From positions 1 to 59,189 of the forward strand of contig JAISBL010000082.1 in assembly GCA_031266215.1 (NCBI GenBank): a stretch of 59,189 nucleotides of DNA, read 5' to 3'. A model generated the notes under the pieces. The model saw only the letters and a list, made by a program, of their open reading frames with translations. It was not told where the DNA came from and searched no databases. Shown here one piece after another: positions 6,272-49,880 of the stretch. Made by a program: the position numbers and the translations under genes. The stretch is from Tannerellaceae bacterium (GTDB taxonomy: Bacteria > Bacteroidota > Bacteroidia > Bacteroidales > Tannerellaceae). Position 1 is the stretch's first letter, and each line of letters opens with the position of its first letter.

Positions 6272-6713
6272 CGGCCGTACACTGCAAAAGCCGGAGGTTA
6301 CTGTATTCCCGGCGCCCCTTTTCTGCGTCTGCTATGCGTACCTTTCCTCCTGAATTCATTATACACTACTTTATAAACCCTTCACACGCCCTGTGTGGAC
6401 AACCCACACGCTACTGTATTAGATTCTCACAGTTATGCCTGTTGGCTCCCCACAGTTATGCCTGTGGGCTATCCACAGTTATGCCTGTTGGCTATCCACA
6501 GTTATGCCTGTTTGCTCCCCACAGTTATGCCTGTTGGTTCTCCACAGTTATGCCTGTGGGCTATCCACAGTTATGCCTGTGGGCTATCCACAGTTATGCC
6601 TGTTGGCTCCACACAGTTATAACTGTGGATTCATCATGACCCGGGTTCGATGCAGGAGAATCAACGGCTCCTCCACGTCGTCATTGCTGCCTCCCTTACC
6701 GTCCTCCCCCCCA
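6272..6713 (+). repeat. Modular repeat element, locus 1 (A x1, linker, B x9)
   Basis: Leader 6272-6382; A unit 6383-6404; linker CACACGCTACTGTATTAGATTCT 6405-6427; nine 23-bp CACAGTTATGCCTGTKGGCTATC-type units 6428-6634; shared tail to 6713. Confidence 0.92.
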
Positions 6714-6818
6714 TACTGTCCAAAAACTAAATTTAAGCTCCGGAGAGTCGCATATTTGCGTTTGTGCTCAGGCAGGCGCCCGAATAAAAAAGCCCTGCCG
6801 GTTAGTTCCCTGACAGCC
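6714..6818. mobile_element. MITE-like 105-bp module, copy 2
   Basis: TACTGTCCAAAAACTAA ... TTAGTTCCCTGACAGCC; direct repeat of 6068-6172. Confidence 0.7.
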
Positions 6819-6966
6819 CCCTCCACTGCGGATTATGTTTATGCGGTACCGATTGCCTTTCATTAACCCGGATTAAGCAATAGGTTTTTCTAATGCTTAG
6901 CATTTCTTAATCCCGGACTCAGGGGATTATTTCCTGTGTAATTACTGTGACTTATCGATTTATTTC

Positions 6967-6974
6967 TATTTTTG
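6967..6974 (+). promoter_or_regulatory. Bacteroidota -7 promoter box for the efflux operon
   Basis: TATTTTTG matches TAnnTTTG, ~65 bp before the MFP gene. Confidence 0.55.
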
Positions 6975-7039
6975 CGAACCCACTGTAAATAATTATGTTA
7001 TACGGGGAAATGCGTAATTAATCCTTAAATGTAAAAAGC

Positions 7040-8104
7040 ATGCACACTTATACTATTATGCGAAGCCTGACGCTGCTGACGCTGCTGGCGGCCTGTTCGG
7101 GGGGTAAGCAGGAGAGCGGGGAAGGGAATGTGGAAACTATACTGCCCGAATCTTCAGGCGAAGTAAGCATCATGACCCTGGAACGAACGAATTTTCATCA
7201 CGAACTTGTAAGTAACGGCAAACTGACGGCTTTGCAGTATGCCGACCTTAGATTTGAGTCGGCTGAACCGGTGGCCGCTGTCTGGGTGAAGAATGGCGAC
7301 CGGGTGACGAAGGGGCAGAAGCTGGCCGAACTGGAAACCTTTCGCCTGAGTAACCGTACGGCTCAGGCTAAGGATGCTCTCGACAGGGCCAGGCTGGATA
7401 TGCAGGATGTGCTGATAGGTCAGGGATACGCTCCGGCCGATTCTGCTGCTACGCCTGCCGGGACCATGCAGTTGGCGCGCACCCGTAGCGGGTACGACCA
7501 GGCGCTGGCCCAGTACCAACTGGCCGCTCATGAGGAAGAACTGGCTGTGCTGAAGGCGCCTTTTGACGGCGTAGTGGCCAATCTCTTCGCCAAGCCTTAC
7601 AATATGGCGTCTACGCAGGAGACGTTTTGCACCATCATAGATGCCAGCCGTGCGGAGGCGTCTTTTACTGTCATGGAGGGCGAGTTGCCTCTTATCAGGA
7701 AGGGCGACAGGGTTGAGGTGGCCCCTTTCTTTGCCACGGCGGACGGCAGTGTGACTGGTACTATTACGGAGATCAACCCGCTGGTGGACGCCGGCGGTAT
7801 GGTGCGCGTCAAAGCGTCGGTGGATAACCGGGGGCAGTTGTTCGAAGGGATGAACATACGCGTAAGCGTGCAGCGCTCGGTACCGGGACAACTGGTGGTT
7901 CCCAAGACGGCGGTAGTCATACGGTCGGGCAAGCAGGTGGCTTTCACGCTTGTGGACGGGAAGGCTTATTGGAACTACGTGCAGACCGGACTGGAGAATG
8001 CTTTGCATTACACCATCACAGAAGGACTGGAGGAAGGCAGTACAGTGATCACGAGCGGTAATATCAACCTGGCGCACGAGTCTGCGGTGAGGGTCGCCAA
8101 CTGA
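7040..8104 (+). CDS. RND efflux periplasmic adaptor (MFP), lipoprotein
   Basis: LLAAC lipobox; VKNGDRVTKGQKLAEL and LKAPFDGVV lipoyl-like halves. Confidence 0.93.
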   Translation: MHTYTIMRSLTLLTLLAACSGGKQESGEGNVETILPESSGEVSIMTLERTNFHHELVSNGKLTALQYADLRFESAEPVAAVWVKNGDRVTKGQKLAELETFRLSNRTAQAKDALDRARLDMQDVLIGQGYAPADSAATPAGTMQLARTRSGYDQALAQYQLAAHEEELAVLKAPFDGVVANLFAKPYNMASTQETFCTIIDASRAEASFTVMEGELPLIRKGDRVEVAPFFATADGSVTGTITEINPLVDAGGMVRVKASVDNRGQLFEGMNIRVSVQRSVPGQLVVPKTAVVIRSGKQVAFTLVDGKAYWNYVQTGLENALHYTITEGLEEGSTVITSGNINLAHESAVRVAN

Positions 8105-8123
8105 AAAACCCAAAGACAGAGAG

Positions 8124-11100
8124 ATGATCAGATTCTTATTAAGTAAGCCCATTGCGGTGCTGATGGCCTGTACGGCTTTTTTCATCATGGGGCTGGTGAC
8201 ATATTTCACACTCCCGGTCTCCCTTTTGCCCGATATTGCCATACCTGAGATCACCGTGCAGGTTACGGGGGCGAACGCTTCGGCGCGGGAGTTGGAGAAT
8301 ACCGTTGTGAAGCCGGTGCGCCAGCAACTGATGCAGGTAAGCCGGCTGCGCGATATACGCAGCGAGACGCGCGACGGATCGGGGTTGCTCAGGCTGAGCT
8401 TCGACTTCGGTGTAAATACCGACCTGGCTTTTATAGAGGTGAACGAGAAGATAGATGCTGCGATGAATTACCTCCCCCGCGAGGTGGAGCGCCCGCGGGT
8501 GATCAAGGCCAACGCAACGGATATACCTGTCTTTTGCCTTAACCTGACGCTCGCCTCTGATAAGGGCAGGGCAGGAGAGGGGGAGACGGACTTCCTCGCC
8601 CTGTGCGAGTTTGCCGAGTCGGTGATCAGGCGCCGCATCGAGCAGTTGCCGGAGGTGGCGATGGTGGATGTCACAGGGACGGCTTCACGGCAGGTGCAGA
8701 TAATTCCCGACATGAGGATGATGGACGCCGCCGGCATAAGGCTTGAAGACCTCGAAGCAGCCATATCTTCAAACAACATCGAGCCGGGCAGCATGACCGT
8801 GCGCGATGGTTATTACGAATACAATATACGTTTCTCTTCTCTCCTCAGAACGGAGGAAGACGTCGAAAATATCTATATACGCAGGAACGGCCGCATCTTT
8901 CAGTTGAAAGACCTGGCCGAGGTGTCGGTTGTGCCTGTCAAAGAGACCGGCTATTCGCTTTCAAACGGTAAGCGGGCCGTCACGCTGGCTATCATCAAAC
9001 AGTCGGAAGAGAACATGGATAAGATGAAGGCTTCGCTGGAAGAGGCGCTAGACTACTTCTCGGAGTCCTACCCTGATATAGAATTCAGCATCTCACGCAA
9101 CCAGACGGATCTGCTGGACTATACGATCTCAAACCTGAAGCAGAACCTCACGCTTGGCTTTATCTTTATCTTCATCGTCGCCGTACTGTTCCTTGGCGAT
9201 GTCAAGAGTCCGGCTATAATCGGGATTAGCATGATAGCGAGCCTTGTGGTATGCTTCCTGTTCTTCTACCTTTTCCACCTCTCGCTGAACATCATTTCGC
9301 TGGCCGGACTGATCCTTGCCCTCGGTATGATGATAGACAGCTCTATCGTGGTGACGGAGAATATCGCCCAGTACCGGGCTATGGGACATTCGCTGGAGGA
9401 CGCCTGCGACAAGGGTACTGTCGAGGTGATCGGGCCTATGCTCAGTTCTACGCTCACGACGATCGTGGTATTTGTCCCCCTTGTATTCATGAGTGGTATA
9501 GCGGGCGCCATCTTCTATGACCAGGCGCTGGCTGTGGCTATCGGACTGATTATTTCCTACTTCACCGGGATCATGCTGCTGCCTGTACTGTATAAGATAG
9601 CTTCGCCCAGGGCCCCCTCCGCCACATCCCGTTCAGGGAAGGCAAGGGCGCGCGGAGAGTCTTTTTACACCTTAGGGGTAGACTTTGTCTTCCGCCATAA
9701 GGCTTCAAGCCTGGCCTGCCTCTTCCTGTCTGTCCCCCTTTGCGCCTACCTTTTCATGGAGATGCCCAAGAGCCGTATGCCAGCCATAGACCAGAACGAA
9801 TTACTGACTTTCATCGACTGGAACGAGAGTATCCATCTGGACGAAAACCGCAACAGGGTAGAAGCCCTGTTCCGCGAAACAAGAGACGAGGGTATGGAAT
9901 ACACCGCTTACGTGGGCAGGCAGCAATTCCTGCTGAACAGGGAGCAGGAGCTTTCGCAATCGGAGGCGGAGCTGTACTTCAAGACGCCTGTGACTTCCGC
10001 AATAGCTCCCTTGCAGCAGAAGGTGGCCCAATGGCTTGAGGAACATTACCCCTCGGCAGTATTCACCTTCCAGCCGCCGGAGACGGTGTTTGAGAAACTG
10101 TTTGTCACCGGCGAGGCCGACATTGTCGCAGAGCTCTCGCCCCGCAACAGGAGCGAAGCCCCCGCCCCGGGAAGCATCCATGCAATAGAGGGCATGATGA
10201 AGGATGCGGCGGGTAATACGCCGGCCGGTATCCCTTTTGATAACCAGCTTACCATCTCCATCGACCGCGAGAAACTGCTATTATATAATGTAGACTACAA
10301 TACCGTCTACCGCAGTCTGCGCACTGCCTTCAGGAAGAACGAGGCCGGCATGCTCCGCTCATACCAGCAATACCTTCCCATTGTAGTTGCCGCAGGCGAA
10401 GAGACAGTGGGCGAGATGGTGCGCAACACGCTTATACCCGACTCTGCCGGAAGGGTGGCTACGCCCCTCTCTGCTTTCCTGACGATCACGCCGGGCGAAG
10501 ACCTCAAGACTATTACGGCCGGCAGGAACGGTGAGTATATACCTTTCCGCTTCTATGACGTCAAAGACGCCGAACGCCTGATGCAGGACGCACGCCGGGG
10601 CGTAGACCGCTTCACGGCCGGCGGAAGCGTGAGTGAGGTATGGGATATGGACTTTTCGGGAAGCTTCTTCTCTAACCGCAGGATGCTGAACGAACTGGCC
10701 GTTATCCTCGCCGTATCCCTCCTGCTGATGTACTTTATCCTTGCGGCGCAGTTTGAGAGCTTTGTCCAGCCGCTGATAGTGCTGCTGGAAATACCCATTG
10801 ACGTGGCCGCCGCACTGCTCCTGCTCTGGGCCTGCGGACATACGCTCAACCTGATGAGCGCCATCGGCATTGTGGTTACATGTAGCGTCATAATAAACGA
10901 CTCTATCCTCAAGCTTGATGCCATTAATATCCTGCGCAAAGAAGGGAAGCCGTTACTTGAAGCCATCCATGAAGCAGGCCGCCGCCGTCTGCGCCCTATC
11001 GTGATGACCTCGCTTACAAGCATCTTCGCTATGGCTCCGCTGCTCTTTTCGTTCGACATGGGCAGCGAACTGCAGAAACCCCTCTCCATTGCCATGATTG

Positions 11101-11180
11101 CCGCCATGATTGTCGGCACGGCTGTCAGCCTCTTTATCATACCCCTTGTTTACTGGGGGATATATCGAAAGAAATTATAA
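8124..11180 (+). CDS. RND efflux permease subunit 1
   Basis: 1018 aa; LPVSLLPDI, LGMMIDSSIVVTEN, RRRLRPIVMTSLT. Confidence 0.95.
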   Translation: MIRFLLSKPIAVLMACTAFFIMGLVTYFTLPVSLLPDIAIPEITVQVTGANASARELENTVVKPVRQQLMQVSRLRDIRSETRDGSGLLRLSFDFGVNTDLAFIEVNEKIDAAMNYLPREVERPRVIKANATDIPVFCLNLTLASDKGRAGEGETDFLALCEFAESVIRRRIEQLPEVAMVDVTGTASRQVQIIPDMRMMDAAGIRLEDLEAAISSNNIEPGSMTVRDGYYEYNIRFSSLLRTEEDVENIYIRRNGRIFQLKDLAEVSVVPVKETGYSLSNGKRAVTLAIIKQSEENMDKMKASLEEALDYFSESYPDIEFSISRNQTDLLDYTISNLKQNLTLGFIFIFIVAVLFLGDVKSPAIIGISMIASLVVCFLFFYLFHLSLNIISLAGLILALGMMIDSSIVVTENIAQYRAMGHSLEDACDKGTVEVIGPMLSSTLTTIVVFVPLVFMSGIAGAIFYDQALAVAIGLIISYFTGIMLLPVLYKIASPRAPSATSRSGKARARGESFYTLGVDFVFRHKASSLACLFLSVPLCAYLFMEMPKSRMPAIDQNELLTFIDWNESIHLDENRNRVEALFRETRDEGMEYTAYVGRQQFLLNREQELSQSEAELYFKTPVTSAIAPLQQKVAQWLEEHYPSAVFTFQPPETVFEKLFVTGEADIVAELSPRNRSEAPAPGSIHAIEGMMKDAAGNTPAGIPFDNQLTISIDREKLLLYNVDYNTVYRSLRTAFRKNEAGMLRSYQQYLPIVVAAGEETVGEMVRNTLIPDSAGRVATPLSAFLTITPGEDLKTITAGRNGEYIPFRFYDVKDAERLMQDARRGVDRFTAGGSVSEVWDMDFSGSFFSNRRMLNELAVILAVSLLLMYFILAAQFESFVQPLIVLLEIPIDVAAALLLLWACGHTLNLMSAIGIVVTCSVIINDSILKLDAINILRKEGKPLLEAIHEAGRRRLRPIVMTSLTSIFAMAPLLFSFDMGSELQKPLSIAMIAAMIVGTAVSLFIIPLVYWGIYRKKL

Positions 11181-11183
11181 ACG

Positions 11184-12683
11184 ATGAACGATAAGATGAA
11201 CCTTCGACTTTTGATTTTAAACCTTCAGCTTTGCTTCCTCTTCATCCCCTCCGCCGCCAAAGCGCAGGGACAGGCTGAGCTGACGCTGACGCTGGAGCAG
11301 GCCATCACGCTGGCCGCCGACAGTTCGCTGGAAGCCTTCAGGAGCAAAAACATGTACCTGGCGGGTTACTGGCAATACCGCACATACAGGGCCGGAAGGC
11401 TGCCGGGTGTATCGCTTAACCTCACGCCGGTGCAGTATTACCGCGATATTACGCGGCGGTACGATTCAAACGAAGACATAGACGTGTACCGCAAACAGCA
11501 GTCTTACTACGCCTACGGCGGCTTGCAGGTGGAGCAGAATCTGGACTGGCTGGGCGGCAGTTTCTTCGTGAACAGCAGCCTGGGGTACATGCGCAATTTC
11601 GGAGACAACGCCTACACGCAGTATACCTCCGTCCCGGTGCGCATCGGCTATACGCAGGAACTGATAGGATATAACCCCTTCAAATGGGAGCGCAAAATAG
11701 AACCGCTGAAGTATGAGAAGGCTAAGAAGGAGTTCATCTACAATATGGAGCAGATAAGCGAGCAGGTCACCGGGTACTTCTTCGACCTCGCTATGGCGCA
11801 GGTCGAATATGATATGGCGACCGATAACGTTGCCAGCACCGACACCCTTTACCGCGTAGGCGAAGAGCGTCAGAAGATAGCCTCCATAACCCAGGCCGAC
11901 CTGCTCACCCTCCGCCTTGACGCCCTGAACGCCCGCAATAAGCTCCAGAACGCTACTATCGACCTCAAACGCGCCATGTTTGCACTGGCTTCGTATCTCA
12001 ACTTTGACAAGAACACCGTCATCCGCCTTCGCCTGCCGGCGCATCCGCTGAAGCAGAGCCTGTCGGTGGACGAAGCCCTGGCCCACGCCCGTGAGAACAA
12101 TCCCCGCTTCCTCGACCTCCGGCGTCAGATACTGGAAGCCGAACAGCAGGTAGACCGCACAAAGAGGGAGGCCATGTTTGACGCTTCCGTCTCAGCCAGC
12201 ATAGGGTTCAACCAGGTGGCCAATACGCTGTCCGACGCTTACCGCAAGCCCCTCCAGCAGGACGTCGTCTCCGTCTCCATCTCCATACCCCTTGTAGACT
12301 GGGGCGTGCGCAAAGGCAGATACAATATCGCCCGCAATACGCTGAACGTGACGCAGACCTCGGCGCGTCAGGAAGAGGTATCGCTTGAGGAAGACCTTTT
12401 GATGACGGTGGGCGACTTCAACGTCCAGCAGCAGCTTGTAGGCAGCGCCGAGGAAGCCCTCTCGCTGGCGCAGATGGCTTATGCCGAGACAAAGCAGCGT
12501 TTCATCATCGGCAAGGCGGACATCAACAGCCTCACCCTCTCGCTCAACCGCCAGCAGGAGGCCGAGCGCAGCTACATACACGCCTTGCGGAGCCATAAGC
12601 TCAGCTATTACAAGATACGCAAACTGACGCTTTACGACTTTGACCTGAAGATACCTCTGTCACGTAAGTTCGACTATGAGTAG
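11184..12683 (+). CDS. TolC-family outer membrane channel
   Basis: Signal peptide; LTLEQAITLA; SISIPLVDWG; position within the RND operon. Confidence 0.92.
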   Translation: MNDKMNLRLLILNLQLCFLFIPSAAKAQGQAELTLTLEQAITLAADSSLEAFRSKNMYLAGYWQYRTYRAGRLPGVSLNLTPVQYYRDITRRYDSNEDIDVYRKQQSYYAYGGLQVEQNLDWLGGSFFVNSSLGYMRNFGDNAYTQYTSVPVRIGYTQELIGYNPFKWERKIEPLKYEKAKKEFIYNMEQISEQVTGYFFDLAMAQVEYDMATDNVASTDTLYRVGEERQKIASITQADLLTLRLDALNARNKLQNATIDLKRAMFALASYLNFDKNTVIRLRLPAHPLKQSLSVDEALAHARENNPRFLDLRRQILEAEQQVDRTKREAMFDASVSASIGFNQVANTLSDAYRKPLQQDVVSVSISIPLVDWGVRKGRYNIARNTLNVTQTSARQEEVSLEEDLLMTVGDFNVQQQLVGSAEEALSLAQMAYAETKQRFIIGKADINSLTLSLNRQQEAERSYIHALRSHKLSYYKIRKLTLYDFDLKIPLSRKFDYE

Positions 12684-15600
12684 ATTCTCCGTCATACTGG
12701 CTTTCATATGCACCGCTCTGGCAGGCATCGCCTTCATACCGCTCCTGCCTGTCAAGCTGGAGCCTTCCTATACGCTGCCCCGGCTGAGCGTAAGCTACAA
12801 TATGCCAAACAACTCGTCGCGAGTCATAGAGATGGAAGTAACCTCGCGCCTCGAAGCCATGCTGTCGCGCATAAAAGGGATAAGGGAGATACGCTCTACG
12901 TCGGGTAACGGCTGGGGGCGTATATCTCTGGAGATAGACAAGCACGCCGATATCGATGTCGTGCGCTTCGAAGCCTCCACCATTATCCGCCAGAGCTGGC
13001 CGGCGATGCCGGATGGTATGACCTACCCCGTCCTCGAGATGAGCCGGCCCGACGATGAAGAGTCGCGCCCATTCATGAGCTACACCATCAACGCAGCTAC
13101 CACCCCGATACTGATACAACGCTTTGCCGAGAACAACGTCAAGCCCCGCCTGGCCGGCATCGCAGGTATTTACCGGGTGGATATAACAGGGGCCACTCCT
13201 ATGGAATGGCAGTTGGAGTACGACAGCCGCCAGATTGCCGCCCTGGGCATTACGATAGACGACATACGCAGGGCCATTGCCCTGAACTACAGCCGCGAGT
13301 TCCTCGGCATAGCGCAGGCCGACGAAGGGGGCGACTTCATACGCCTGGCGCTGGCGCCGGAGAGCGGGAGCGAAGGATTCGACCCTTCGCTTATCAGCGT
13401 CACAGCGGCCAATGGTACGGTGGTGCGCCTCGACCGCCTGCTGAAAGTCTCGCGACGTGAAGAGTCTCCTACCGGTTACTACCGTATCAACGGACTGAAC
13501 TCCATTTACCTCTCCATACGCGCAGAGGAGTCGGCCAACCAGTTGGATCTCGCTTCGCGCGTCAACGAAGAGATGGAAGTCATACGCGCCTCACTCCCCG
13601 CCGGATACGAGATGCACATCAGCTACGACGCCACCCGCTTCATACGCGAAGAGCTTGAAAAGATATTCATCCGCACCATCCTTACCGTCATCATCCTCCT
13701 GCTCTTCATCCTCGTAATGACGCGCAACCTGCGCTACCTGGCGCTTATCGTATCGAGCCTCGCCATCAACATCTGCATATCTTTCATCTTCTACTACATG
13801 CTTGGTCTGGAGATGCAACTGTATTCACTTGCCGGCATGACTATCTCGCTCAGCCTGATAATAGACAACACCATTGTCATGTCCGACCATATCCGCAAAC
13901 GCCATAACCGCGACGCATTCCTGCCCATACTTACGGCCACGCTCACCACCATCGGCGCCCTGTCGGTAGTCTTCTTCCTTGACGAACAGATACGCATCAA
14001 CCTGCGCGACTTTGCCGTCGTGGTGATAGTCAACCTCGCCGTCTCACTCGCTGTAGCCCTCTTCTTCATCCCGGCCATGCAGAGGCCTGTCGTTCCGGGG
14101 GCGTCATCCCGCAGGGGCAGGCGGCTGCCCGCTCAGGTGAGAAGGGCCATACGCCGGTTACCGGTCTATTCGGGCTACGCCTATATCAGTCAGATGCGTT
14201 TCTTCATCCGGTGGAGAAAATCACTCTGCTCCCTTCTCATCCTTGCCTTCGGGCTTCCGGTGTTTATGCTTCCCGAAAAGATAAATATGAAAGCCGACCA
14301 GACCTACTCTCATCTTGATTCGCTCCTTATCTCCCGCTATAACCAGACGCTGGGCAGCACGGCCTATAAGGAAAAGATCAGGCCGGTGGTCGATAAAGCC
14401 CTCGGCGGCGCGCTCCGCCTGTTCGTCCAGAAAGTATATGAAGGAAGTTACATGACCCGCCGTGAAGAAATGGCGCTTATCGTAACCGCTTCGATGCCCA
14501 ACGGCGTCACCCTGCCGCAGATGAATAACCTTATCGGGCGCATGGAGTCTTACCTTAGCGCGTATACGGGAGAGATACGGCAGTTTCAGACCAGCATCTT
14601 TAACGCCCGGCAGGCGCGTATAGATATTTTCTTCACCAAAGAGTCTGAGCGTAGCGCCTTCCCCTACACTCTCAAGAGCAACATCATCAGTAAGGCTCTT
14701 GAACTGGGCGGAGGCAGTTGGAGCGTCTACGGCCTGCCCGACCAGGGCTTCAACAACGACGTGCGCGAATCGGCGGGCAACTATCGTATCGAGGTTCTTG
14801 GTTACAATTACGACGAACTCTACCGTCATGCCGAAACGCTTCGCGACTCCCTCCTCAATTACCGCCGCATAAATGAGGTGCTTATCAGCTACGAGTTCTC
14901 TTACTACAAGGACGACTACCGCGAGTTTTCGTTCAACCTCGACAAGCGCCGGCTGGCTGAGAAAAACATCCTGCCCGTTGAACTGTTCGCCTCTCTCCGC
15001 CCGGTATTCGCCCGCGACGTCCCGGTCGGCAGCATCGTTGTGGATAATGAATCCGAACGCCTCCGGCTCGGTTCGCGGCAATCGTCCGAATACGATGTAT
15101 GGAGCCTGCTCTATGTCCCCGAACTGTCGGCCGCACCCTACAAGATCAGCGAACTGGCCGAAGTCGGCAAGGAGCTTATGCCTCAGAACGTCGCCAAGAT
15201 AGACCAGCAATACCGCCTCTGCCTCCAGTACGAATATATCGGGGCCTCCAATCAGGGGAACCGTATACAGGAGCGCGTGGTCGAGGCCTTCAACGCCTCG
15301 CTCCCGCCGGGGTACAGCGCAAGGGTCGACAACCGGGGTTTTTACTACTGGACGAGCAAAGACAACCGCCAGTACCTGTTGCTGCTCATCATCGTTGTCA
15401 TCATATACTTTACGGCCGGGATACTATTCAACTCACTGCGCCAGCCGCTTGCCATCATTTTCGTCATACCCATCTCCTACATAGGGGTCTTCCTCACGTT
15501 CTACTGGTTTAAGCTGAACTTCGACCAGGGGGGATTCGCCTCCTTCGTCATCCTGTGCGGCATCACCATCAACGCAAGTATTTACATACTTAACGAGTAC

Positions 15601-15858: not shown

Positions 15859-15876
15859 GGCTCTGCGTGAAGAGCT

Positions 15877-16313
15877 CACACTCTACTGTATTAGATTCTC
15901 ACAGTTATGCCTGTTAGCCGTTCACAGTTATGCCTGTTAGCCGTTCACAGTTATGCCTGTTAGCCGTTCACAGTTATGCCTGTTAGCCGTTCACAGCTAT
16001 GCCTGTTAGCCGTTCACAGCTATGCCTGTTAGCCGTTCACAGTTATGCCTGTTAGCCGTTCACAGCTATGCCTGTTAGCCGTTCACAGTTATACCTGTTA
16101 GCCGTTCACAGCTATGCCTGTTAGCCGTTCACAGCTATGCCTGTTAGTCGTTCACAGCTATGCCTGTTAGCCATTCACAGCTATGCCTGTTAGCCGTTCA
16201 CAGCTATGCTTGTTAGCTGTTCACAGTTATGCCTGTTAGCCGTTCACAGCTATGCTTGTTAGTACTTCACAAGTATGCTTGTTGATTCCCCACAAGGAAC
16301 CTTGTTGGCTCTC
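15877..16313 (+). repeat. Modular repeat element, locus 2 (linker, B x18; no leader, A array or tail)
   Basis: Linker CACACTCTACTGTATTAGATTCT 15877-15899; 16 units CACAG(T/C)TATGCCTGTTAGCCGTT plus 2 divergent units, exact 23-bp period from 15900. Confidence 0.95.
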
Positions 16314-16345
16314 CAACCTGAGTTTCCGGAGATAAGGCGGCGCTC

Positions 16346-16471
16346 CTGTAAAACGACCAATACGCTTGAGTGAGGGTTTCCGGTGTGTGCCGACGCCCCA
16401 GGCCTTATTGATATGGCGTAAGCACACACCGAAAACCCTCACCCGGACGGCGTCACGGGCGCGTTTTACAG
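16346..16471. repeat. Nested inverted-repeat element (possible second MITE/REP type)
   Basis: Outer CTGTAAAACG/CGTTTTACAG (perfect 10 bp); inner 21-bp arms GTGAGGGTTTCCGGTGTGTGC (16370-16390) / GCACACACCGAAAACCCTCAC (16422-16442). Confidence 0.75.
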
Positions 16472-16683
16472 AGGTGCATCAGGCTATGCAAAGAGCGATG
16501 CCGGTTTTTCTTACCTCGAATTCAGATTCTTAAATGCGTCTGCCCTGTTTGTAAAACGAGTCTGCGGCTCTCCGTAATAAATATCAACTATATTTGCATC
16601 CGTATTCAACGGAGCTTAGTCATTTAACTATTAGAATAAAGAGAATTATGAATGATCGTGTAAATCACTTAAAAACAGAGACC

Positions 16684-17475: not shown

Positions 17476-17547
17476 ACCGCCCGGTGCGGTATAATAATTA
17501 CCTTTGCCACTTCAGAAATCTAAAAACAGAATAATTATCAATGCATT

Positions 17548-19824: not shown

Positions 19825-19858
19825 GTGTATCAATCGCTATAATGTGTGGCGCAAAGGT

Positions 19859-19897
19859 AAAAAAAGAAGCTGTCCGAAATTTTGCTTCCGGACAGCT
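19859..19897 (-). terminator. Rho-independent terminator after the ppiD-like gene
   Basis: Stem AGCTGTCCG/CGGACAGCT followed by a U-run on the minus strand. Confidence 0.7.
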
Positions 19898-30549: not shown

Positions 30550-30557
30550 CAAGTATT

Positions 30558-35679: not shown

Positions 35680-35739
35680 TACTAACCTCCCGGATAAGGG
35701 AAAACCGGCCTGCTCAGTAAGGCAAACTGTTCCCTCTGA

Positions 35740-36404
35740 GGGGGAACGGTAAGGGAGGTAGCAATGACGACGTGGGTGAGCCGTTGATTTTCCTGCATCG
35801 AACCCATGTCACGATGAATCCACAAGCATACCTGTGGGAAGTCCACAAGCATACCTGTGGGAAGTCCACAAGCATACCTGTGGGAAGTCCACAAGCATAC
35901 CTGTGGGAAGTCCACAAGCATACCTGTGGGTAATCCACAAGCATACCTGTGGGTAATCCACAAGCATACCTGTGGGAAGTCCACAAGCATACCTGTGGGA
36001 AGTCCACAAGCATACCTGTGGGTAATCCACAAGCATACCTGTGGGTAGTCCACAAGCATACTTGTGGGGAATCAACAAGGTACCTTGTGAGAATCTAATA
36101 CAGTAGCGTGTGGAACTATCCACACAGGGCGTGTGAACGCTTAACACAGTAGTGTGTGAACATCTAACACAGTAGTGTGTGAGCGCTTAACACAGGGCGT
36201 GTGAACACTTAACACAGTAGCGTGTGAACACCTAACACAGTAGTGTGTGAACGCCTCACACAGGGCGTGTGAACACTTAACACGGGGCGTGTGAAGCGTT
36301 TATAAAGTAGTGTATAAGGAATTCAGGAGGAAAGGTATGCATAGCAGACGCAGAGAAGGGGCGCCGGGAATACAGTAACCTCCGGCTTTTACAGTGTACG
36401 GCCG
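35740..36404 (-). repeat. Modular repeat element, locus 3 (inverted; A x8, linker, B x12)
   Basis: Tail 35740-35820; B units CACAAGCATACCTGTGGGAAGTC at 23-bp period from 35821 to ~36096; linker ~36091-36113; A units 36121-36300; leader to 36404. Confidence 0.93.
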
Positions 36405-36518
36405 CCTGTTGAATGAGTAACCATTTTAACTGAAGATTTGCGCTTTTCAGGGAGAGAGTGCATGCCACACCGGACTTTTCTTACATTGAACCTGTGTTCC
36501 GTGCGCCGGCAGGTACGC

Positions 36519-39632: not shown

Positions 39633-39641
39633 ATTCTTCGT

Positions 39642-39986: not shown

Positions 39987-40096
39987 GCCGTAAAATTATA
40001 ATAAAAACACTCCGGCACAAACAGAGGCTGGTATATCGAAACTCAGGTACGGATTGGTAAAGGTAAGGACAGAAAGAGGGGGCGCTTATACGTATA

Positions 40097-41626: not shown

Positions 41627-41701
41627 ACTTTCATTTAATCGCCTGCAAACATAGACATTCTACACTTTATTTCCATACCTTTGCCTATAATCTTTTTTGG
41701 T

Positions 41702-42715: not shown

Positions 42716-42787
42716 CCGTATGGGAGGGTACGGTATAAATGCGTACTTTAGCGCGTATTAATCAGATAAAACTAAATAAGAGTAATT

Positions 42788-43843
42788 ATGGATGCTATTT
42801 TGTACTTGTTGATAGGAGCCTATACGGCCGGTTTAAGTGAAGGTGTTTATTTATACAAGTTTGACGCTGCCAACGGCGACGCCCGGTACGTTCACATGGC
42901 GGCCGTGGAAAATCCCTCCTACATAGACACAGGAGACGGAGAACATATATATGCTGTGACTGAAAATGCAGACGCCCCGTCTTATGCCAACACTCTGCTT
43001 TTTGACAGGGAACATGAACGGCTGACTCTCGTCAACCGCCAGGAGACATTCGCTTCTTCTCCCTGCTATATTGTGACCGACAAGGATCGCAAATACGCTG
43101 TGACGGCCAACTACGGCGGAGGCAGCATCTCGGTATTTCCCATAAACCAGGACACGCTCATGCCATCCTGTCAACTGATCATACTCGAAGGATCGGGGGC
43201 CGATACTACACGTCAGCAGGCGCCTCACCTGCACTGCGTAAAGTTTTCCCCGGACGGGAAATACCTGTTTGCCACCGACCTGGGAACCGACAACATCTAC
43301 CGCTTCGATACCGATTATGCGGCAGGCGGAGAGGGTGGAGCTTTCCTGAAGGAAGAAACCATGAAATCGTTCAGACTTCCTGCCGGATCGGGCCCGCGCC
43401 ACATGACGTTCCATCCTTCCGATAAATATATGTATGTGATCAATGAACTATCAGGCGCGGTAGAATGTTTCCTTTACAATGACGGCGACCTGACGTCGTT
43501 CCAGACCATACAGGCCGACACCGCCGGCGGCCGGGCAAGCGCCGATATAGGTATCACCCCGAACGGTAAGTTCCTGTACGCCTCCAACCGCAATAAAAAC
43601 GACGGCATAGCCATCTTCTCTATCAATGAAGCGGACGGCACGCTGGTAAAGGCAGGCTATCAGCTTACGGGCAAACATCCCCGTAACTTCGTCATCACAC
43701 CCAACGGGAAATACCTGCTTGCGGCCAGTATGGACAGCAGCCTGATCGAGGTGTTTGAGATAGACGAAGTTACCGGTATGCTGCGTAACGCAGGAAAAGA
43801 TATAACGGACGTAGACACGCCTGTTTTCCTGAAGTTCCTCTGA
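42788..43843 (+). CDS. Lactonase, 7-bladed propeller (6-phosphogluconolactonase-like)
   Basis: ANYGGGS, PHLH, DLGTD, GSGPRH, ASNR, HPRNF. Confidence 0.88.
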   Translation: MDAILYLLIGAYTAGLSEGVYLYKFDAANGDARYVHMAAVENPSYIDTGDGEHIYAVTENADAPSYANTLLFDREHERLTLVNRQETFASSPCYIVTDKDRKYAVTANYGGGSISVFPINQDTLMPSCQLIILEGSGADTTRQQAPHLHCVKFSPDGKYLFATDLGTDNIYRFDTDYAAGGEGGAFLKEETMKSFRLPAGSGPRHMTFHPSDKYMYVINELSGAVECFLYNDGDLTSFQTIQADTAGGRASADIGITPNGKFLYASNRNKNDGIAIFSINEADGTLVKAGYQLTGKHPRNFVITPNGKYLLAASMDSSLIEVFEIDEVTGMLRNAGKDITDVDTPVFLKFL

Positions 43844-43845
43844 AC

Positions 43846-45120
43846 CTATTTCTTACATTGTTCTTTCAGCCACTGGGATGTTGCCGCCTGTTGTTCAGGA
43901 TATATCCAGTGCCCCGAATCGGTATACAGCGTCAATTCCTTTGGCGCTGTGATTGTGTTATATGCCGCATACATGGACGTGGGAGGGCAGGTGACGTCAT
44001 TAAGTCCCCAACTGTATAATCCGGGAGCTTCTACCCGGCGGGCAAAGTTTGCAACGTCGTAGTACGAAAGCGTCTCCACCTCGCCCGATTCGGGCTTGGC
44101 ATACCTGAAGTAGTGAGGCCATCCGCCGGCGCGGTTTTTCAGGAATCCCCCAAGGTCGCACATGGCAGGGTGAATGGGTGCAAGGAACCTGATACGCTTG
44201 TCGAGGGCGGCCGTTGCGATAGACAAGGCTCCACCCTGGCTGCTGCCCGACACTCCAACCGTTTTGCCGTCAAACTCCGGCAGTGAGAAAATATAATCCA
44301 CCGCACGTACGCATCCCAGGTATACCCGTTTGTAATAAAACTGGTCTTTGTTATTCCTGCTGCTCTCCCAGTAACCGTTAAGCGCGCCGCCATAGAGCGT
44401 GAAGTAGACAGACTGGGCCATTGTGACGGATATGCCGTGGACGCCTATCTCAAGAGAAATGACGTCGTCGCCGTAATTCATTCCGTTGTAAGGACGCACG
44501 CCGGCTCCGGGCACCTGCAGTATGGCGGGATATTTGCCGGGCTTCTTCGGCACCATCAGTATCCCGTAAACGCGGGAAAAGCCGGTGTTGCGGAAGCTGA
44601 CTTCATACGCATCCTGGGTGGCTGTAGACTTTTCGGGCAGCAGGACTTTTGTGGCGTCCAGCGGCATCCTCCGGGCTGTTTCGATGGCATTGGCCCAGAA
44701 GGTATCAAAGTCCTTCGGTTCGTCCGACACGGGAAGTATCTTCTCGTTATCATACAGCGCAGCCGCCATGCCTTCGTAGTTCCTGCCGCCGACCCTGGCC
44801 ACTACCCGGCAGCGGAGAAGTCCCGGCTCTTTCAGCGTTCCTTTAAGCGTGATCTTTCCATCCTTCAGCACCTTGTCCTTTTGTTCCACCGTGGGGAAGA
44901 ACTCCTTACCCAGCTCATAATCTACGGTCACATCTTTCATAAGATTCCCAAACTGATACACCTGGACGGTGAAGGTCGCCTCTTCGCCCGTTTTGTACTT
45001 CCAGTCCTGATGGTCGGGAGACACAATAACGTTAACCAGTCTCTGCGCGGGCTGCGCCTGCGCATACTGCACTGCTCCCGCAATTCCCAGGAGGCAGAAT
45101 AATAGCAGATACTTTTTCAT
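43846..45120 (-). CDS. Acetylxylan esterase / cephalosporin-C deacetylase (CE7-like)
   Basis: Signal peptide, PKDFDTFW, GSSQGG nucleophile, DVTCPP, terminal GH. Confidence 0.88.
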   Translation of the reverse strand: MKKYLLLFCLLGIAGAVQYAQAQPAQRLVNVIVSPDHQDWKYKTGEEATFTVQVYQFGNLMKDVTVDYELGKEFFPTVEQKDKVLKDGKITLKGTLKEPGLLRCRVVARVGGRNYEGMAAALYDNEKILPVSDEPKDFDTFWANAIETARRMPLDATKVLLPEKSTATQDAYEVSFRNTGFSRVYGILMVPKKPGKYPAILQVPGAGVRPYNGMNYGDDVISLEIGVHGISVTMAQSVYFTLYGGALNGYWESSRNNKDQFYYKRVYLGCVRAVDYIFSLPEFDGKTVGVSGSSQGGALSIATAALDKRIRFLAPIHPAMCDLGGFLKNRAGGWPHYFRYAKPESGEVETLSYYDVANFARRVEAPGLYSWGLNDVTCPPTSMYAAYNTITAPKELTLYTDSGHWIYPEQQAATSQWLKEQCKK

Positions 45121-45343
45121 AAATAGTAGTTTAAAATTTCCCGTAAATGTAGTCATTTAACATGAGTTGGACACAAGGCGGCTCCACGTGGGGCGACAGT
45201 CCGGTTCCAGAGCCGCCTGCCGATAACAGTAACAGGGAAAAACAGCAGGGTTAACCAAAACATCTCCCCTTCCTTTTATCGTTTATTTAATATATCTTTG
45301 GCGCACCAAATAATCAGCAACTAAACACCATGTAACGTACGAT

Positions 45344-47689
45344 ATGAGAAACCCGTTTATTGTCTGCGCCCTATGCGCGCTTGTTGTTTTATCATCCTGC
45401 CATTGCGGAACGGCGGAGGAAAAAGTCTACAATCAGGGAATCAACATCATTCCCGCTCCCCTTAGCCTTGTAAATAATGAAGGAGTGTTTACGGTGAACA
45501 AAAACACAACCTTCTACGCTTCTTCGCCCGAAGGGCGGACGGTTGCCGAGTTCTTTGCAGCCAGACTGAATCTCTCTACCGGTTACCGGCTGGGTGTTTC
45601 GGGCAAAGGGGCTGACGCCGGGAATACGATAGCTCTTATTACAGACCCTTCTGCAGACGTCGGCGACGAGGGCTATACGCTTGACGTCGCCCCACATAAT
45701 GTGGCGGTGAGGGCCAGGACGGCACAGGGGCTGTTCTATGGCATGCAGACGTTCATGCAACTGCTCCCCGCCGAGGTTGAAAGTCCGACTCCAGTGAAAG
45801 GCGTCCGGTGGACGGCGCCGGCTGTAGCCGTAAGGGATGAGCCGCGGTTTGCCTACCGGGGGGTGATGCTCGACGCCAGCCGGCATTTCATCCCTGTGGA
45901 TAATATAAAGAAGCAGTTGGACGTCTTCGCCCTGTTCAAGATCAACCGCATGCACTGGCACCTTACCGATGACCAGGGCTGGCGTATCGAGATCAGGCAA
46001 TACCCGCGGCTAACAGAGGCAGGCTCCAAAAGTCCGAACAGCGAAGGCTTTTACACCCAGGAGGAGGTGAGGGAGATAGTGGCCTACGCCGCCGAGCGCT
46101 TCATCACCGTTATACCCGAAATAGAACTGCCGGGGCACGAACTGGCCGCCATCTCGGCCTACCCCGAACTCTCGTGCAAGGGCGAGCCCGTTTCTATACG
46201 CTCAGTCTGGGGAGTTGAAGACGTCGTTCTTTGTGCAGGTAAGGAAAGCGTCTTTGAGTTCCTCGAAAACGTGATAGGGGAGGTGACCGCCCTTTTCCCC
46301 TCGGAATACTTCCACATAGGAGGCGACGAATGCCCAAAGACCAGTTGGAAAGAATGCCCGCTCTGCCGTGAGCGCATCCGCAGTGAGGGAATAGCGGCCG
46401 ACGCCCACCATAGCGCCGAAGAGCGCCTCCAGAGCTACTTTGTACAGCGTATAGAGAAGATACTCGCACGGTACGGCAGGAAGATGACAGGCTGGGACGA
46501 GATACTCGAAGGCGGACTTGCTCCCACGGCTACCGTCATGTCGTGGCGGGGCGAACAGGGTGGTATAGCAGCGGCAAACATGGATCACGACGTCATAATG
46601 ACGCCTGGCTCCGGCGGGATGTACATCGACGCCTATCAGGGGGATGCCAGGATTGAGCCTGTGACTATCGGAGGGTATACACCTCTGGAGAAAACATACG
46701 CCTACAATCCCATCCCCGACACGCTGGCGGCTACCGGGAAGGGCGGCTTCATCCGTGGCGTGCAGGCCAACCTGTGGTCTGAATACATGTACACCACGGA
46801 CCTGATGGAATACCGCGCTTATCCGCGCGTACTGGCCCTGTCCGAAATAGCATGGTCGGCGCTCGACAGGAAAGACTACAAGGACTTTGAACGCCGGGTA
46901 GACAACGCCCTGGTGCGGCTTGACGGACATTCGGTGAACTACCACATCCCCCAGCCCGAACAGCCCGGCGGCTCGTGCAACTTCGTAGCCTTTACAGATA
47001 AAGCGACGCTGGAGTTTAAGACCACACGCCCCGTCACGATGGTATATACTACCGACGGATCGGAGCCTTCGCCGGGGTCGGCCGTTTACAGTTCGCCGAT
47101 AGAATACACACGGTCGGGCACGCTGAAGATACGCTCCGTACTGCCTTCGGGCAGGATGAGCGTGACGCGCGTGATAACGGTTGAAAAGCAGGAACCTTCG
47201 CCAGCCGCCCGTCCTTCCCCAGAGGGTTTGACCCCCGGCCTGCAACTGAAGGTGGCTTACGGCGAATACAGGGACGTGGCTTCGCTTAAGGCCGCGGGCG
47301 AATGGAAAGACGTTGCGCCCCTGGCCGACCTGCGCGGAATAACGAGGGTAGAACCCGCTAACGATGCAATGCGCGACGTGAAGCAGTACGCCGCCGTTGC
47401 CTCCGGATACGTAGACATCCCGGAAGACGGAGTGTATTACTTCTCGAGCGATAACGAAGAGGTATGGATTGACGGCCGTTTGCTGATTGATAACGGCGGC
47501 GAGGTGAAACGCTTCTCCCGCCACGACAGGTCGGTAGCGCTTGACAGGGGTCTGCACGAACTGAAAGTGGTCTTCCTTGGGCATATCATCGGCGGGTGGC
47601 CTTCGAACTGGAACAACGGGAGCGTACAGGTCCGCAGGTCCGACGCCGACAGGTTCGCCCGCCTCACACCCGGAATGCTATTTCACTAA
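45344..47689 (+). CDS. GH20 beta-N-acetylhexosaminidase lipoprotein with C-terminal accessory (PA14-like) domains
   Basis: DEPRFAYRGVMLD.SRH, HWHLTDDQGWR, HIGGDE; -7 box at 45293-45300. Confidence 0.93.
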   Translation: MRNPFIVCALCALVVLSSCHCGTAEEKVYNQGINIIPAPLSLVNNEGVFTVNKNTTFYASSPEGRTVAEFFAARLNLSTGYRLGVSGKGADAGNTIALITDPSADVGDEGYTLDVAPHNVAVRARTAQGLFYGMQTFMQLLPAEVESPTPVKGVRWTAPAVAVRDEPRFAYRGVMLDASRHFIPVDNIKKQLDVFALFKINRMHWHLTDDQGWRIEIRQYPRLTEAGSKSPNSEGFYTQEEVREIVAYAAERFITVIPEIELPGHELAAISAYPELSCKGEPVSIRSVWGVEDVVLCAGKESVFEFLENVIGEVTALFPSEYFHIGGDECPKTSWKECPLCRERIRSEGIAADAHHSAEERLQSYFVQRIEKILARYGRKMTGWDEILEGGLAPTATVMSWRGEQGGIAAANMDHDVIMTPGSGGMYIDAYQGDARIEPVTIGGYTPLEKTYAYNPIPDTLAATGKGGFIRGVQANLWSEYMYTTDLMEYRAYPRVLALSEIAWSALDRKDYKDFERRVDNALVRLDGHSVNYHIPQPEQPGGSCNFVAFTDKATLEFKTTRPVTMVYTTDGSEPSPGSAVYSSPIEYTRSGTLKIRSVLPSGRMSVTRVITVEKQEPSPAARPSPEGLTPGLQLKVAYGEYRDVASLKAAGEWKDVAPLADLRGITRVEPANDAMRDVKQYAAVASGYVDIPEDGVYYFSSDNEEVWIDGRLLIDNGGEVKRFSRHDRSVALDRGLHELKVVFLGHIIGGWPSNWNNGSVQVRRSDADRFARLTPGMLFH

Positions 47690-47765
47690 ACCTCCTTTAT
47701 AAACACTATCACGCCCCCTCTTTTCAAACCGTGAGAGGGGGAACAAACCACACTGACTGTATCGT

Positions 47766-48641
47766 ATGAAACATATTCCGCAATATAACCATTACAGGAA
47801 AAAAACCGTAGATGAACTCAGGGTCAACGTCGTAGAACTCCATTATATAAAACCGTACCTCTCTACCACATCAATACATTCGCTGACCTATTACGATATC
47901 TCTTTCATAACCGAAGGTTCCGGCTTTTTTACCGTAGGCGACCAGACCCACATCGTAAAGCCGTATGACGTTATCTTCACCAAACCGGGTGAAGCGCGTA
48001 ACTGGGACAAAAAGAACATAAGGGATGGCTTTGCCCTGATCTTTGAAGAAGAGTTCATCATGTCCTTCTTCAACGACCGCGACTTCCTTCAGAACCTCTC
48101 CTTTTTTTCTATGGGCAGGTACTCGGTGAAAACAACGCTTGACGTTGATGCGTTCATCCGTCTGCATAATGTGATAATGAAACTGAAAGACGAGATAGCC
48201 GAAGCAAAAGACCGGCACACCGTCAGAGCCCTGCTGTATGAAGTCATGACGCAGCTCAACCGGGCTTACCTCTACGAACACAACGTCCTGCCCGTGTTGC
48301 CGGAGGAAAACAAGAAGGTAAAGAATAAGTACGTTAATGACTTCCTCAGCCTCGTAAATACGCATTATGCGCAGCAACACTCCATAAGGTATTACGCCGA
48401 CAGGTTATCGATAACACCCAATTACCTGAATGAGGTGATAAAGAAATCTATCGGCGTGAATGCCAAACTTTACATCCAGAACCGGATACTGCAGGAAGCA
48501 AAGCGTATGCTGACCTACACCGATATGCCGGTATCGGCCATAGCGGAAGCCCTGTGCTTTGAGAACTCTTCTTATTTCACAGTCTTCTTCCGCACCCAGA
48601 CCCGGCATACTCCCCTGCAATACAGAAATCTTTCCAAATGA
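47766..48641 (+). CDS. AraC-family transcriptional regulator
   Basis: C-terminal YYADRLSITPNYL ... IAEALCFENSSYF..FF. Confidence 0.92.
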   Translation: MKHIPQYNHYRKKTVDELRVNVVELHYIKPYLSTTSIHSLTYYDISFITEGSGFFTVGDQTHIVKPYDVIFTKPGEARNWDKKNIRDGFALIFEEEFIMSFFNDRDFLQNLSFFSMGRYSVKTTLDVDAFIRLHNVIMKLKDEIAEAKDRHTVRALLYEVMTQLNRAYLYEHNVLPVLPEENKKVKNKYVNDFLSLVNTHYAQQHSIRYYADRLSITPNYLNEVIKKSIGVNAKLYIQNRILQEAKRMLTYTDMPVSAIAEALCFENSSYFTVFFRTQTRHTPLQYRNLSK

Positions 48642-48705
48642 ACAGAACCCTCCTGTAGCAAAACACCAGGTAAATAATGGCGGAATTGTTTAATTTTGCA
48701 ACACA

Positions 48706-49254
48706 GTGGAAACAAGCGATAACATAGCAAACCTGAACGAACTGTATAAAAACTATAATGATAGATTTGTACGTCTCGCAAAAAGCTACGTCATGTCAAA
48801 GGAAATAGCCGAAGATATAGTGATGGAGAGCTTCATGTGCTACTGGGAGAACCGGCTGCAACTGGCTCCCGGATCAAACGCGCCGGCCTATATCACAACG
48901 CTGATAAAAAACAAATGCCTTAACCACCTTAACCGCCTTCATACGCAGGATGAGATAAAGAGACAGCTTACCAATCTGGAAGTCTGGGAAGCGAAACTTC
49001 AGATAGCCACCCTTGAAGCCTGTAATCCGAAGAAACTATTCTCCGATGAAGTGCACCAGATTGTAAACAGAACGCTGGAATCCCTGCCTCCAAAGACGTG
49101 CGAAGTATTCGTCCGCAGCCGCTACCTTGAGCAGAGTCACAAGGAGATTGCCGAATGCCTGGGGCTATCCACAAAAAGCATAGAGTATCATATAACCAAG
49201 ACCCTGAAAATACTGCGGATAGCGTTGAAAGACTACTTCCTCCCGACCCACTGA
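48706..49254 (+). CDS. ECF RNA polymerase sigma-70 factor
   Basis: AEDIVMESF, KNKCLNHL, SHKEIAECLGLSTKSIEYHI; TAATTTTG box at 48691-48698. Confidence 0.92.
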   Translation: METSDNIANLNELYKNYNDRFVRLAKSYVMSKEIAEDIVMESFMCYWENRLQLAPGSNAPAYITTLIKNKCLNHLNRLHTQDEIKRQLTNLEVWEAKLQIATLEACNPKKLFSDEVHQIVNRTLESLPPKTCEVFVRSRYLEQSHKEIAECLGLSTKSIEYHITKTLKILRIALKDYFLPTH

Positions 49255-49268
49255 CCCCTCTGACAATC

Positions 49269-49880
49269 TCCCGGCGCCCCTTCTCTGCTTACCCTTCCTC
49301 CTGAATTCCTTATACACTACTTTATAAACTCTCCACACGCCCTGTGTGGACATCCCACACGCTACTGTGTGGACAACCCACACGCCCTGTGTGGACAACC
49401 CACACGCCCTGTATGGACAACCCACACGCCCTGTGTGGACACCCCACACGCCCTGTGTGGACACCCCACACGCCCTGTGTGGACAACCCACACGCTACTG
49501 TGTGGACACCCCACACGCCCTGTGTGGACATCCCACACGCCCTGTGTGGACAACCCACACGCCCTGTGTGGACAATCCACACGCCCTGTGTGGACACCCC
49601 ACACGCCCTGTGTGGACAATCCACACGCCCTGTGTGGACACCACACACGCTACTGTGTGGACAACCCACACACCCTGTGTGGATAGTTCCACACGCTACT
49701 GTATTAGATTTTCACAAGGCGCCTTGTTAGCTCTTCACAAGGAACCCTGTTAACTCTTCACAAGGAACCTTGTTGACTCCCCACAGGGATACTTGTGGAT
49801 TCATCGTGACCTGGGTTCGATGCAGGAGAATCAACGGCTCCCCCACGTCGTCATTGCTACCTCCCTTACCGTTCCCCCCA
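49269..49880 (+). repeat. Modular repeat element, locus 4 (A x16, linker, B x4)
   Basis: Truncated leader from 49269; 16 units CACACGCCCTGTGTGGACAACC (22/23 bp) 49334-49689; linker 49690-49712; four B units 49713-49804; tail to 49880. Confidence 0.95.

Follow-up and report, generated by a model that had tools for sequence, protein, structure and literature searches.

A repeat-array element family in a Tannerellaceae genome that probably derives from the end of an HU-Ig gene and the array behind it

The four array elements of the window (the whole 59,189-nucleotide stretch analysed here) go back, with a probability of about 70%, to an HU-Ig gene: they would be decaying copies of its 3' end and of the array that lies behind it, likely spread by transposases of insertion sequences. 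An earlier note made from the sequence had described a high-copy non-coding family; its interpretation is supported in part. The four elements themselves are probably inert.

Architecture of the window elements

Each of the four loci occurs where the earlier note placed it, on the strand given there. TRF scores of 103-637 and BLAST matches among the leaders (E down to 1e-45) lie far above chance. The A:B copy numbers reported there (1:9, 0:18, 8:12 and 16:4) are borne out by pattern counts of units, which gave 2/1/9/17 A and 9/18/12/4 B for loci 1-4, each A count including the A-like linker. The limits first drawn were too short, as the elements run beyond them: locus 1 spans 6067-6818, locus 2 15860-16547, locus 3 35737-36437 and locus 4 49269-49985. 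These copies are 690-750 bp long, every one intergenic and without a transposase, and their placement relative to genes is not constant (divergent, co-oriented twice, convergent).

Locus 1 (forward strand) begins with a previously overlooked mini-element of ~105 bp, modC, which has its own terminal inverted repeats (6067-6172). The leader (6214-6381; protein match E 4e-9) contains HU-Ig gene sequence from the 3' end, with its stop codon, and a short gene-to-array spacer, and joins nt 482-527 of the parent gene to nt 648-726, the 120 nt between being deleted. TRF and pattern counts resolve the array (6383-6628) into one A unit, an A-like linker (6405-6427) and nine B units of 23 bp. By sequence comparison, the tail (6625-6712) starts with a degenerate IS982-type end motif and is also found in elements with other arrays, and a right modC (6713-6818), a direct repeat of 6067-6172, is likely the outer end of the composite. 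Locus 2 (forward) begins directly past the stop of an AcrB-type gene and is left-truncated, with the linker (15877-15898) and 18 B units within 15860-16307 (TRF, pattern count). It is not confined to linker and array B, however, since it has a second type of tail (16308-16547), which differs from that of the other loci and closes with a terminal inverted repeat of ISAs1 type (16530-16547; end comparison); the left repeat is absent.

Locus 3 (reverse strand) has a leader with the HU-Ig gene 3' end (36298-36437; parent nt 614-726 plus spacer, by alignment to the parent gene), arrays of eight A units (22-23 bp), linker and 12 B units (35822-36295; TRF, pattern count), and a tail (35737-35823) that ends in a shortened hairpin without modC (sequence comparison). 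Likewise, locus 4 (forward) carries the final ~45 nt of the gene plus spacer when aligned to the parent (49269-49333), then 16 A units, mostly of 22 bp, linker (49690-49709) and four B units (49334-49797; TRF, pattern count), followed, by sequence comparison, by a tail (49795-49879) and modC (49880-49985). A fifth array found by TRF (588-883) belongs to a different 23-bp family, with 13 arrays genome-wide, the same as that behind the HU-Ig gene of C30.

At loci 1, 3 and 4, unitigs of the public run X1, possibly the source sample of the assembly, lead from unique flank across the outer ends into the element. These junctions are no assembly artefact. Depth in this run is high across repeats and is not usable as copy number. 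An empty-site joint was not found in its unitigs, and the relatives compared include no genome of the same species.

Genome-wide we count 22 A/B-type loci in 2.70 Mb (assembly 87% complete), against ~180 expected from the density of the window, and "high-copy" was thus an overstatement. They are among 258 arrays of 21-23 bp. The order leader, A, linker, B, tail holds in the window and is not universal: the A/linker/B core is joined to either of two leaders and to several tails in a mosaic, and the window-type tail also adjoins other arrays. Nor do A and B look like two unrelated arrays. They appear to be variants of one unit type: behind the same HU-Ig gene end C17 has A only and C38 has B only. 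A and B would be diverged forms of this unit, with slippage altering their counts and the linker a worn junction A unit. Units within arrays are 78-95% alike, without variable spacers. When the whole element was searched in 40 relatives, leader, array and tail had no match and only modC matched, in two; modC occurs as a solitary element at C122 and C67 and in relatives G020 and G012.

The HU-Ig gene end and its private array

At C17:12533-13258 stands an intact HU-Ig gene, and array A begins 29 bp behind it. Its protein carries the domains PF14848 and PF14734 of the Ig-fused HU-HIG clade and matches PDB 4FMR in sequence (E 8e-58) and fold (E 2e-18); the modified HU domain, C-terminal Ig domain and 4FMR-like fold place it in the Ig-fused subclade, a family with 14 matches in the study genome (G000). 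Eight dispersed remnants are 79-86% identical to this gene, with 5' ends at nt 482-648 and A/B arrays after each, and 11 of the 21 non-parent loci align with the end of this gene at E<=1e-16. The longest remnants (locus 1, C93 and C38) have a common 5' junction near nt 482-493. A second HU-Ig gene, at C84, has four such remnants bearing its own array. The statement that no gene belongs to the element was therefore wrong, although the copies do lack a transposase, as claimed. Variable columns of the remnants, which are 84-96% alike, fall evenly across codon positions (12/11/10 of 44/44/45), indicating drift without coding constraint. A search of viral contigs found no close HU-Ig relatives.

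The pairing of gene and array extends beyond this genome. A palindromic 22-23-bp array of its own lies directly downstream of 38 of 52 HU-Ig genes in other Bacteroidales genomes compared with 3 of 54 control ORF ends, and within G000 behind 8 of 11 HU-Ig genes compared with 66 of 1654 other ORF ends. The native period is 23 in 38 of 46 arrays and 22 in the remaining 8, and the array sequences are unrelated. Many native downstream arrays lie, by eye, past a terminator-like hairpin. Four of the 14 HU-Ig genes without a downstream array have one upstream, and in other HU-HIG subclades the array is upstream at 16 of 28 loci. Our literature search found no paper on the HU-HIG/array pairing and none on DUF4469. 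An array acting as operator of the next gene was rejected on mixed orientations (judged by eye, ~20 cases are co-oriented and 13 convergent), as was DUF6261 as a source of 21-bp arrays, its two genes having no array in the flanks examined.

We suspect, at somewhat less than even odds, that the native array offers dimers of the HU-Ig protein encoded next to it a series of dyad sites. Such sites would account for a fixed period with free sequence, and the scattered copies would then be stray sites without a selected role. Several observations count against binding. Across 28 close relatives the HU domain averages -3.25, a net acidic value, and the arm has one K/R; unit sequence hardly tracks protein identity (rho 0.08, with background-level likeness at 55-68% identity); and 14 of 52 genes are without the downstream array. 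Differences between close paralogs are not clustered in the HU arm. A competing view, to which we give about one chance in three, is that native arrays are not binding sites but either RNA hairpins in a row, bound by the Ig-capped protein, or a trace left by the movement of these genes; dispersal would be the same. The acidic domain speaks for it, as do array sequences that turn over faster than the protein and the occluded clasp of 4FMR, deemed an unlikely DNA binder in the passages of PMC5499826 consulted. The operator-like place of the upstream arrays in other subclades and the frequent position of downstream arrays beyond a hairpin stand against it.

Insertion-sequence ends and the spread of the copies

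The elements are short, multicopy, intergenic and transposase-free, as MITEs are, and the suggestion of a non-autonomous mobile element is upheld by sister copies with ISAs1 ends and target duplications. Inverted ends at both sides are present on C39 and C119 (ISAs1) and on locus 1, C93 and C104 (outer modC), and absent from loci 2, 3 and 4. Among 11 ISAs1 end pairs, three have perfect 10-bp duplications and two, the A/B copies C39 and C119, have 11-bp duplications with one mismatch, while five have none and one has a 4-bp match only. A degenerate ISAs1 element (C95:8546-9724, NF033564) has the same end type; no intact ISAs1 was found in G000. The IS982-type motif at the tail start has 82 matches forming seven pairs, six of them around other arrays, and in relative G009 it delimits a complete IS982 (L123). 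IS1380 was dismissed as parent of this motif, its sole copy (C110) having no link to it. By eye, modC appears linked to IS1182. Neither the four window copies nor C104 show a convincing target duplication, and C93 has only a 7-bp C-rich match that overlaps the element end.

The proposed route would start from an HU-Ig gene with a private array directly behind it, as seen at C17. IS ends lie beside the array: the IS982-type at the tail start, modC around locus 1, C93 and C104, and ISAs1 around C39 and C119. The unit between the outer ends moved by transposition at C39 and C119, as their duplications show, and would have done so at the window copies; the elements are likely non-autonomous composite MITEs spread by transposases in trans. 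The copies were then eroded from the ends and internally and drifted without coding constraint, as the remnants attest.

Spread by recombination or gene conversion among shared repeat modules, with IS ends and arrays accumulating in the same intergenic spaces rather than transposing on their own, is improbable, at roughly one chance in eight. Mosaic leaders and tails, ragged element ends, window copies without duplications and the 410 kb of the assembly in dispersed repeats (paralogous genes included) would fit it. Against it, C39 and C119 combine both ends and a duplication with unrelated flanks, and at locus 1, C93 and C104, which are unrelated sites, the outer modC ends agree.

The earlier note offered a functional ncRNA or a tunable platform for regulation, with processing into ~23-nt hairpins or selection at each site; this reading is very unlikely. 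In its favour are the palindromic units, a folding better than that of shuffles in two of four arrays (z -2.6), and the promoter activity of BrickBuilt segments (PMC4596501). Against this, two of four arrays and the tail (z +1.7) do not fold, the leader, arrays and tail have no match in the 40 relatives, position relative to genes is not fixed, the units lack variable spacers and the leader drifts neutrally. Rfam gave no match in the window at gathering threshold and, at E<=1, two sub-threshold chance matches only on five loci, and a look-up of locus 1 gave no RNA holder, which counts neither way; the ncRNA reading found no support.

Also very unlikely, at about one in twenty, is that reverse transcriptase made 5'-truncated retro-copies of an HU-Ig transcript with gene end and array in its 3' UTR. 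It would agree with staggered 5' ends while the gene end stays fixed, seen in two gene families independent of each other, and with the genome's one RT locus (C55, where one of two PF00078 matches has two stops). Against it, 3' ends show no less raggedness than 5' ends, internal deletions occur, the longest copies have one 5' junction, many native arrays sit, by eye, behind the terminator-like hairpin, and BrickBuilt is likewise eroded from both ends (PMC4596501).

Comparison with known systems

The parent gene has the domains, fold and lineage-specific expansion of the Ig-fused HU-HIG subclade (PF14848 + PF14734; PDB 4FMR; PMC5499826). The consulted passages of that paper give these proteins no known ligand or neighbour, report almost no conserved gene neighbours and do not mention DNA arrays, whereas here a private 22-23-bp array is a conserved neighbour. 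Among the constant-length, variable-sequence bacterial satellites of Subirana and Messeguer, a genome holds many families that share one period, 20-21 nt (PMC8161180, PMC8625621), and the parts of PMC8161180 consulted give such repeats no known origin or role. Our arrays resemble them in their many families and unrelated sequences, with a period of 21-23, and differ in that 22-23-bp families are traced in part to a single gene family and to carriers with IS ends. The chain from HU-Ig gene and array to scattered copies provides a source for fixed-period repeats, as well as a candidate ligand for HU-HIG proteins; private arrays of HU-Ig genes likely explain the origin of fixed-length bacterial minisatellites. 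More speculatively, and rather doubtfully, HU-HIG could be a large array-binding family whose private 22-23-bp dyad arrays are measured by geometry and coated as a filament, these arrays being the nursery of Bacteroidales fixed-period minisatellites, BrickBuilt included, with IS ends capturing and scattering decoy sites.

The earlier note saw no known match. Variable spacers of the CRISPR kind are absent; the architecture of Porphyromonas gingivalis's BrickBuilt MITE had been overlooked. As described in the consulted parts of PMC4596501, BrickBuilt is likewise from Bacteroidales, intergenic and present in ~20 copies; it has a leader, a spacer-less 23-nt array of varying length and a tail, is end-eroded with few copies retaining both ends and a duplication, and has no Rfam match. 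Its ends are IS5-type, those of the present elements ISAs1, IS982-type and modC, and unlike in that description the leader of our elements can be traced to a gene end and their units come in two variants placed in tandem. Four P. gulae BrickBuilt arrays with near flanks gave no BLAST match in G000. One BrickBuilt array lies directly upstream of an HU-HIG gene; the idea that its leader or tail is an HU-Ig remnant was rejected, the entire neighbouring gene in L077 being the only match.

ISAs1- and IS982-derived MITEs have terminal repeats in common with the transposons of their family, with 10-11-bp duplications on the ISAs1 type; the window copies are instead composite or truncated and, apart from the two modC copies at locus 1, do not have both ends from one family. 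CRISPR, TIGR and REP/BIME are short palindromic repeats in tandem. Unlike these, the present elements have no variable spacers and no effector gene beside the copies, and their units are specific to species and paralog.

The four loci and their family in the source genome

Direct inspection of the sequence confirmed the positions that the earlier note gave for four repeat loci; the elements reach beyond the limits given there and span 6067-6818 (+), 15860-16547 (+), 35737-36437 (-) and 49269-49985 (+) of the window. Their arrays have periods of 22-23 bp (TRF). Pattern counts give 2, 1, 9 and 17 A units at loci 1 to 4, an A-like linker being counted in each, and 9, 18, 12 and 4 B units, reproducing the A:B ratios of 1:9, 0:18, 8:12 and 16:4. 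All four loci are intergenic, and their neighbors are ordinary Bacteroidales-type genes in divergent, co-oriented, convergent and co-oriented arrangement, indicating no fixed orientation. Unitigs of X1, a public sequencing run that is possibly the source sample, join unique flanks to the element at loci 1, 3 and 4, at the junctions only. Ahead of hisG, 150 bp downstream of locus 4 (50132-50260), a His-codon-rich short frame and a terminator-like hairpin resemble, by eye, a histidine attenuator. The window opens (1-541) with the 5' end and upstream region of an Rpn-like multicopy gene, which adjoins a fifth array, has up to 13 self-hits and is present in full copies elsewhere in the genome; positions 57073-59189 hold multicopy coding stretches with 5-6 self-hits.

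At least three A/B units occur at each of 22 loci in the source assembly, which spans 2.70 Mb on 134 contigs and is 87% complete. Homologue names, together with the label of the sequencing run, suggest a member of the Bacteroidales from the termite gut. The 22 loci belong to a wider set of 258 merged arrays with periods of 21-23 (126 of 21, 13 of 22 and 119 of 23), which form 49 sequence families and total 49.9 kb. Among 40 relatives searched the A/B family was not found beyond the source species, since the only element piece matched, in 2 genomes, was modC, the mini-element flanking locus 1. At least two of the 21-bp families are coding repeats within Rpn-like genes. Several 21-bp families also lie 30-200 bp upstream of unannotated ORFs of 185-300 aa that look alike by eye (C65:32824, C38:36553, C56:13695, C65:9137 and C108:1076; loci L139-L143), possibly a second gene-array system.

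The leader and the HU-Ig gene

On contig C17 the leader extends upstream into an intact 242-codon gene (C17:12533-13258), whose stop lies 29 bp ahead of array A. The product carries PF14848 and PF14734 and matches PDB 4FMR in a profile search (E 8e-58) and in the fold of its predicted model (E 2e-18, pLDDT 92); it is a member of the Ig-fused HU-HIG subclade (PMC5499826, section 10). Eight dispersed remnants of this gene (79-86% identity, starts at nt 482-648) are each followed by an A/B array. When the spacer is added to the gene end, 11 of the remaining 21 A/B loci align to it at E<=1e-16, and a twelfth aligns weakly. The leader of locus 1 comprises nt 482-527 and 648-726. In seven remnant copies the variable columns number 12, 11 and 10 of 44, 44 and 45 at the three codon positions, and any two copies are 84-96% identical, showing neither coding constraint nor a recent burst. 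Likewise, a second HU-Ig gene, on C84, has four truncated remnants carrying its own array, and two more at contig ends. Behind the same gene end stands A alone at C17 and B alone at C38, and the best interpretation is that the two arrays are built from variants of a single unit.

The pairing of gene and array is general for HU-Ig genes. In the source genome a 22-23-bp array lies downstream of 8 of 11 near-intact HU-Ig genes, compared with 66 of 1654 long ORFs. In other genomes (the loci fetched were 26 of 30 matches in the genus and 27 of 46 in an order-wide sample covering 15 of 200 genomes, one locus lacking a flank) such an array follows within 400 bp in 38 of 52 HU-Ig genes versus 3 of 54 other ORF ends taken from fetched loci, for which the Fisher P of 1e-13 is overstated because kin among the loci are not independent. 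Fourteen of the 52 have no downstream array, and four of these carry a 22-bp array upstream. Close metagenome relatives have the array at 4 of 5 HU-Ig loci, two of which are probably one. Across 46 gene-array pairs the period is 23 in 38 and 22 in 8, unit palindromy is 0.64 against 0.51 +/- 0.08 in shuffles, and unit likeness barely tracks protein identity (rho 0.08). PF18291 genes of the genus (L087-L116; 30 fetched, 28 analysed after leaving out two duplicates of earlier genes) have an upstream 22-bp array in 16 of 28 cases, against a background of 1 in 136 mostly coding windows; one has a 21-bp array downstream. Upstream arrays thus counted have period 22, downstream arrays mostly 23. In L079, a close HU-Ig relative, a short 23-bp-like repeat falls under the TRF threshold, and the next gene resembles a conjugative-element protein by eye.

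Insertion sequence ends and dispersal

A second leader type opens with an ISAs1-type repeat at four loci (C39, C91, C119 and C121), and this repeat closes five, including window locus 2. A degenerate element with the same end type (C95:8546-9724) encodes ISAs1 pieces. Eleven ISAs1-type end pairs include three with a perfect 10-bp target duplication, two (C39 and C119, both A/B) with an 11-bp duplication bearing one mismatch, one with a 4-bp match and five with no duplication. What the earlier note called the tail opens with a worn copy of an end motif that has 82 hits in the genome. This motif forms seven pairs, six of which enclose other arrays; on C82 the tail continues into a motif-bounded element, and in the related genome G009 (L123) the motif flanks a complete IS982. 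modC is a separate element of ~105 bp with its own inverted ends, standing alone in the source genome and two relatives; its outer ends are common to locus 1, C93 and C104, and by eye it resembles the left end of an IS1182-like element at C121. Any of the three end motifs lies within 500 bp of 94 of the 258 arrays versus 6.6% of random sites, an enrichment overstated because random sites are mostly coding. Broken ISAs1, IS1380-family, IS1182-like and reverse-transcriptase remnants occur at C95:8546-9724, C20:6079-6894, C110:15065-16021, C55:4390-5009 and on C29, C45 and C121, with no intact transposase among those inspected.

The best reading, to which we give a probability of roughly 70%, is that a native HU-Ig array and gene end would have been trapped between IS ends and multiplied by transposases in trans, that the copies would later have eroded, and that slippage would set the A:B counts. 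The duplications establish transposition of the two sister copies on C39 and C119. The flanks of window loci 1-4 have no convincing target duplication, and we infer that these copies transposed too. A non-coding RNA, as the earlier note had also proposed, found no support in Rfam or folding tests.

Native role and relation to BrickBuilt

The native role is less certain than the dispersal. The native array may be a row of putative dyad sites for the neighboring HU-Ig dimer, a tentative reading with slightly less than even odds, favored because period and symmetry are retained across proteins merely 20-30% alike and because sister HU-HIG subclades have an array in operator position. Counting against dyad sites are the acidic HU domain, the occluded clasp described in PMC5499826, and the fast turnover of the arrays.

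BrickBuilt, a Porphyromonas gingivalis MITE with a 23-nt tandem array, is matched by the window elements in architecture (PMC4596501), yet they are not members of it. One of four BrickBuilt-type arrays in P. gulae sits upstream of an HU-HIG gene, at a distance of ~100 bp (L077:1152-1347 and 1446-1904; PF18291 E 8e-23, TIGR01201), and P. gingivalis BrickBuilt_14, without ends, adjoins the DNA-binding gene PGN_0872. This setting is possibly the native locus of BrickBuilt; a chance insertion of the array next to an HU-HIG gene is also possible. Fixed-period satellites are described as unexplained in PMC8161180, and the accessible portions of the open-access literature yielded no link of HU-HIG genes to arrays. 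What this analysis adds are the downstream arrays in the Ig-fused subclade, their escape into dispersed elements and, in the form of a lead, the connection to BrickBuilt.
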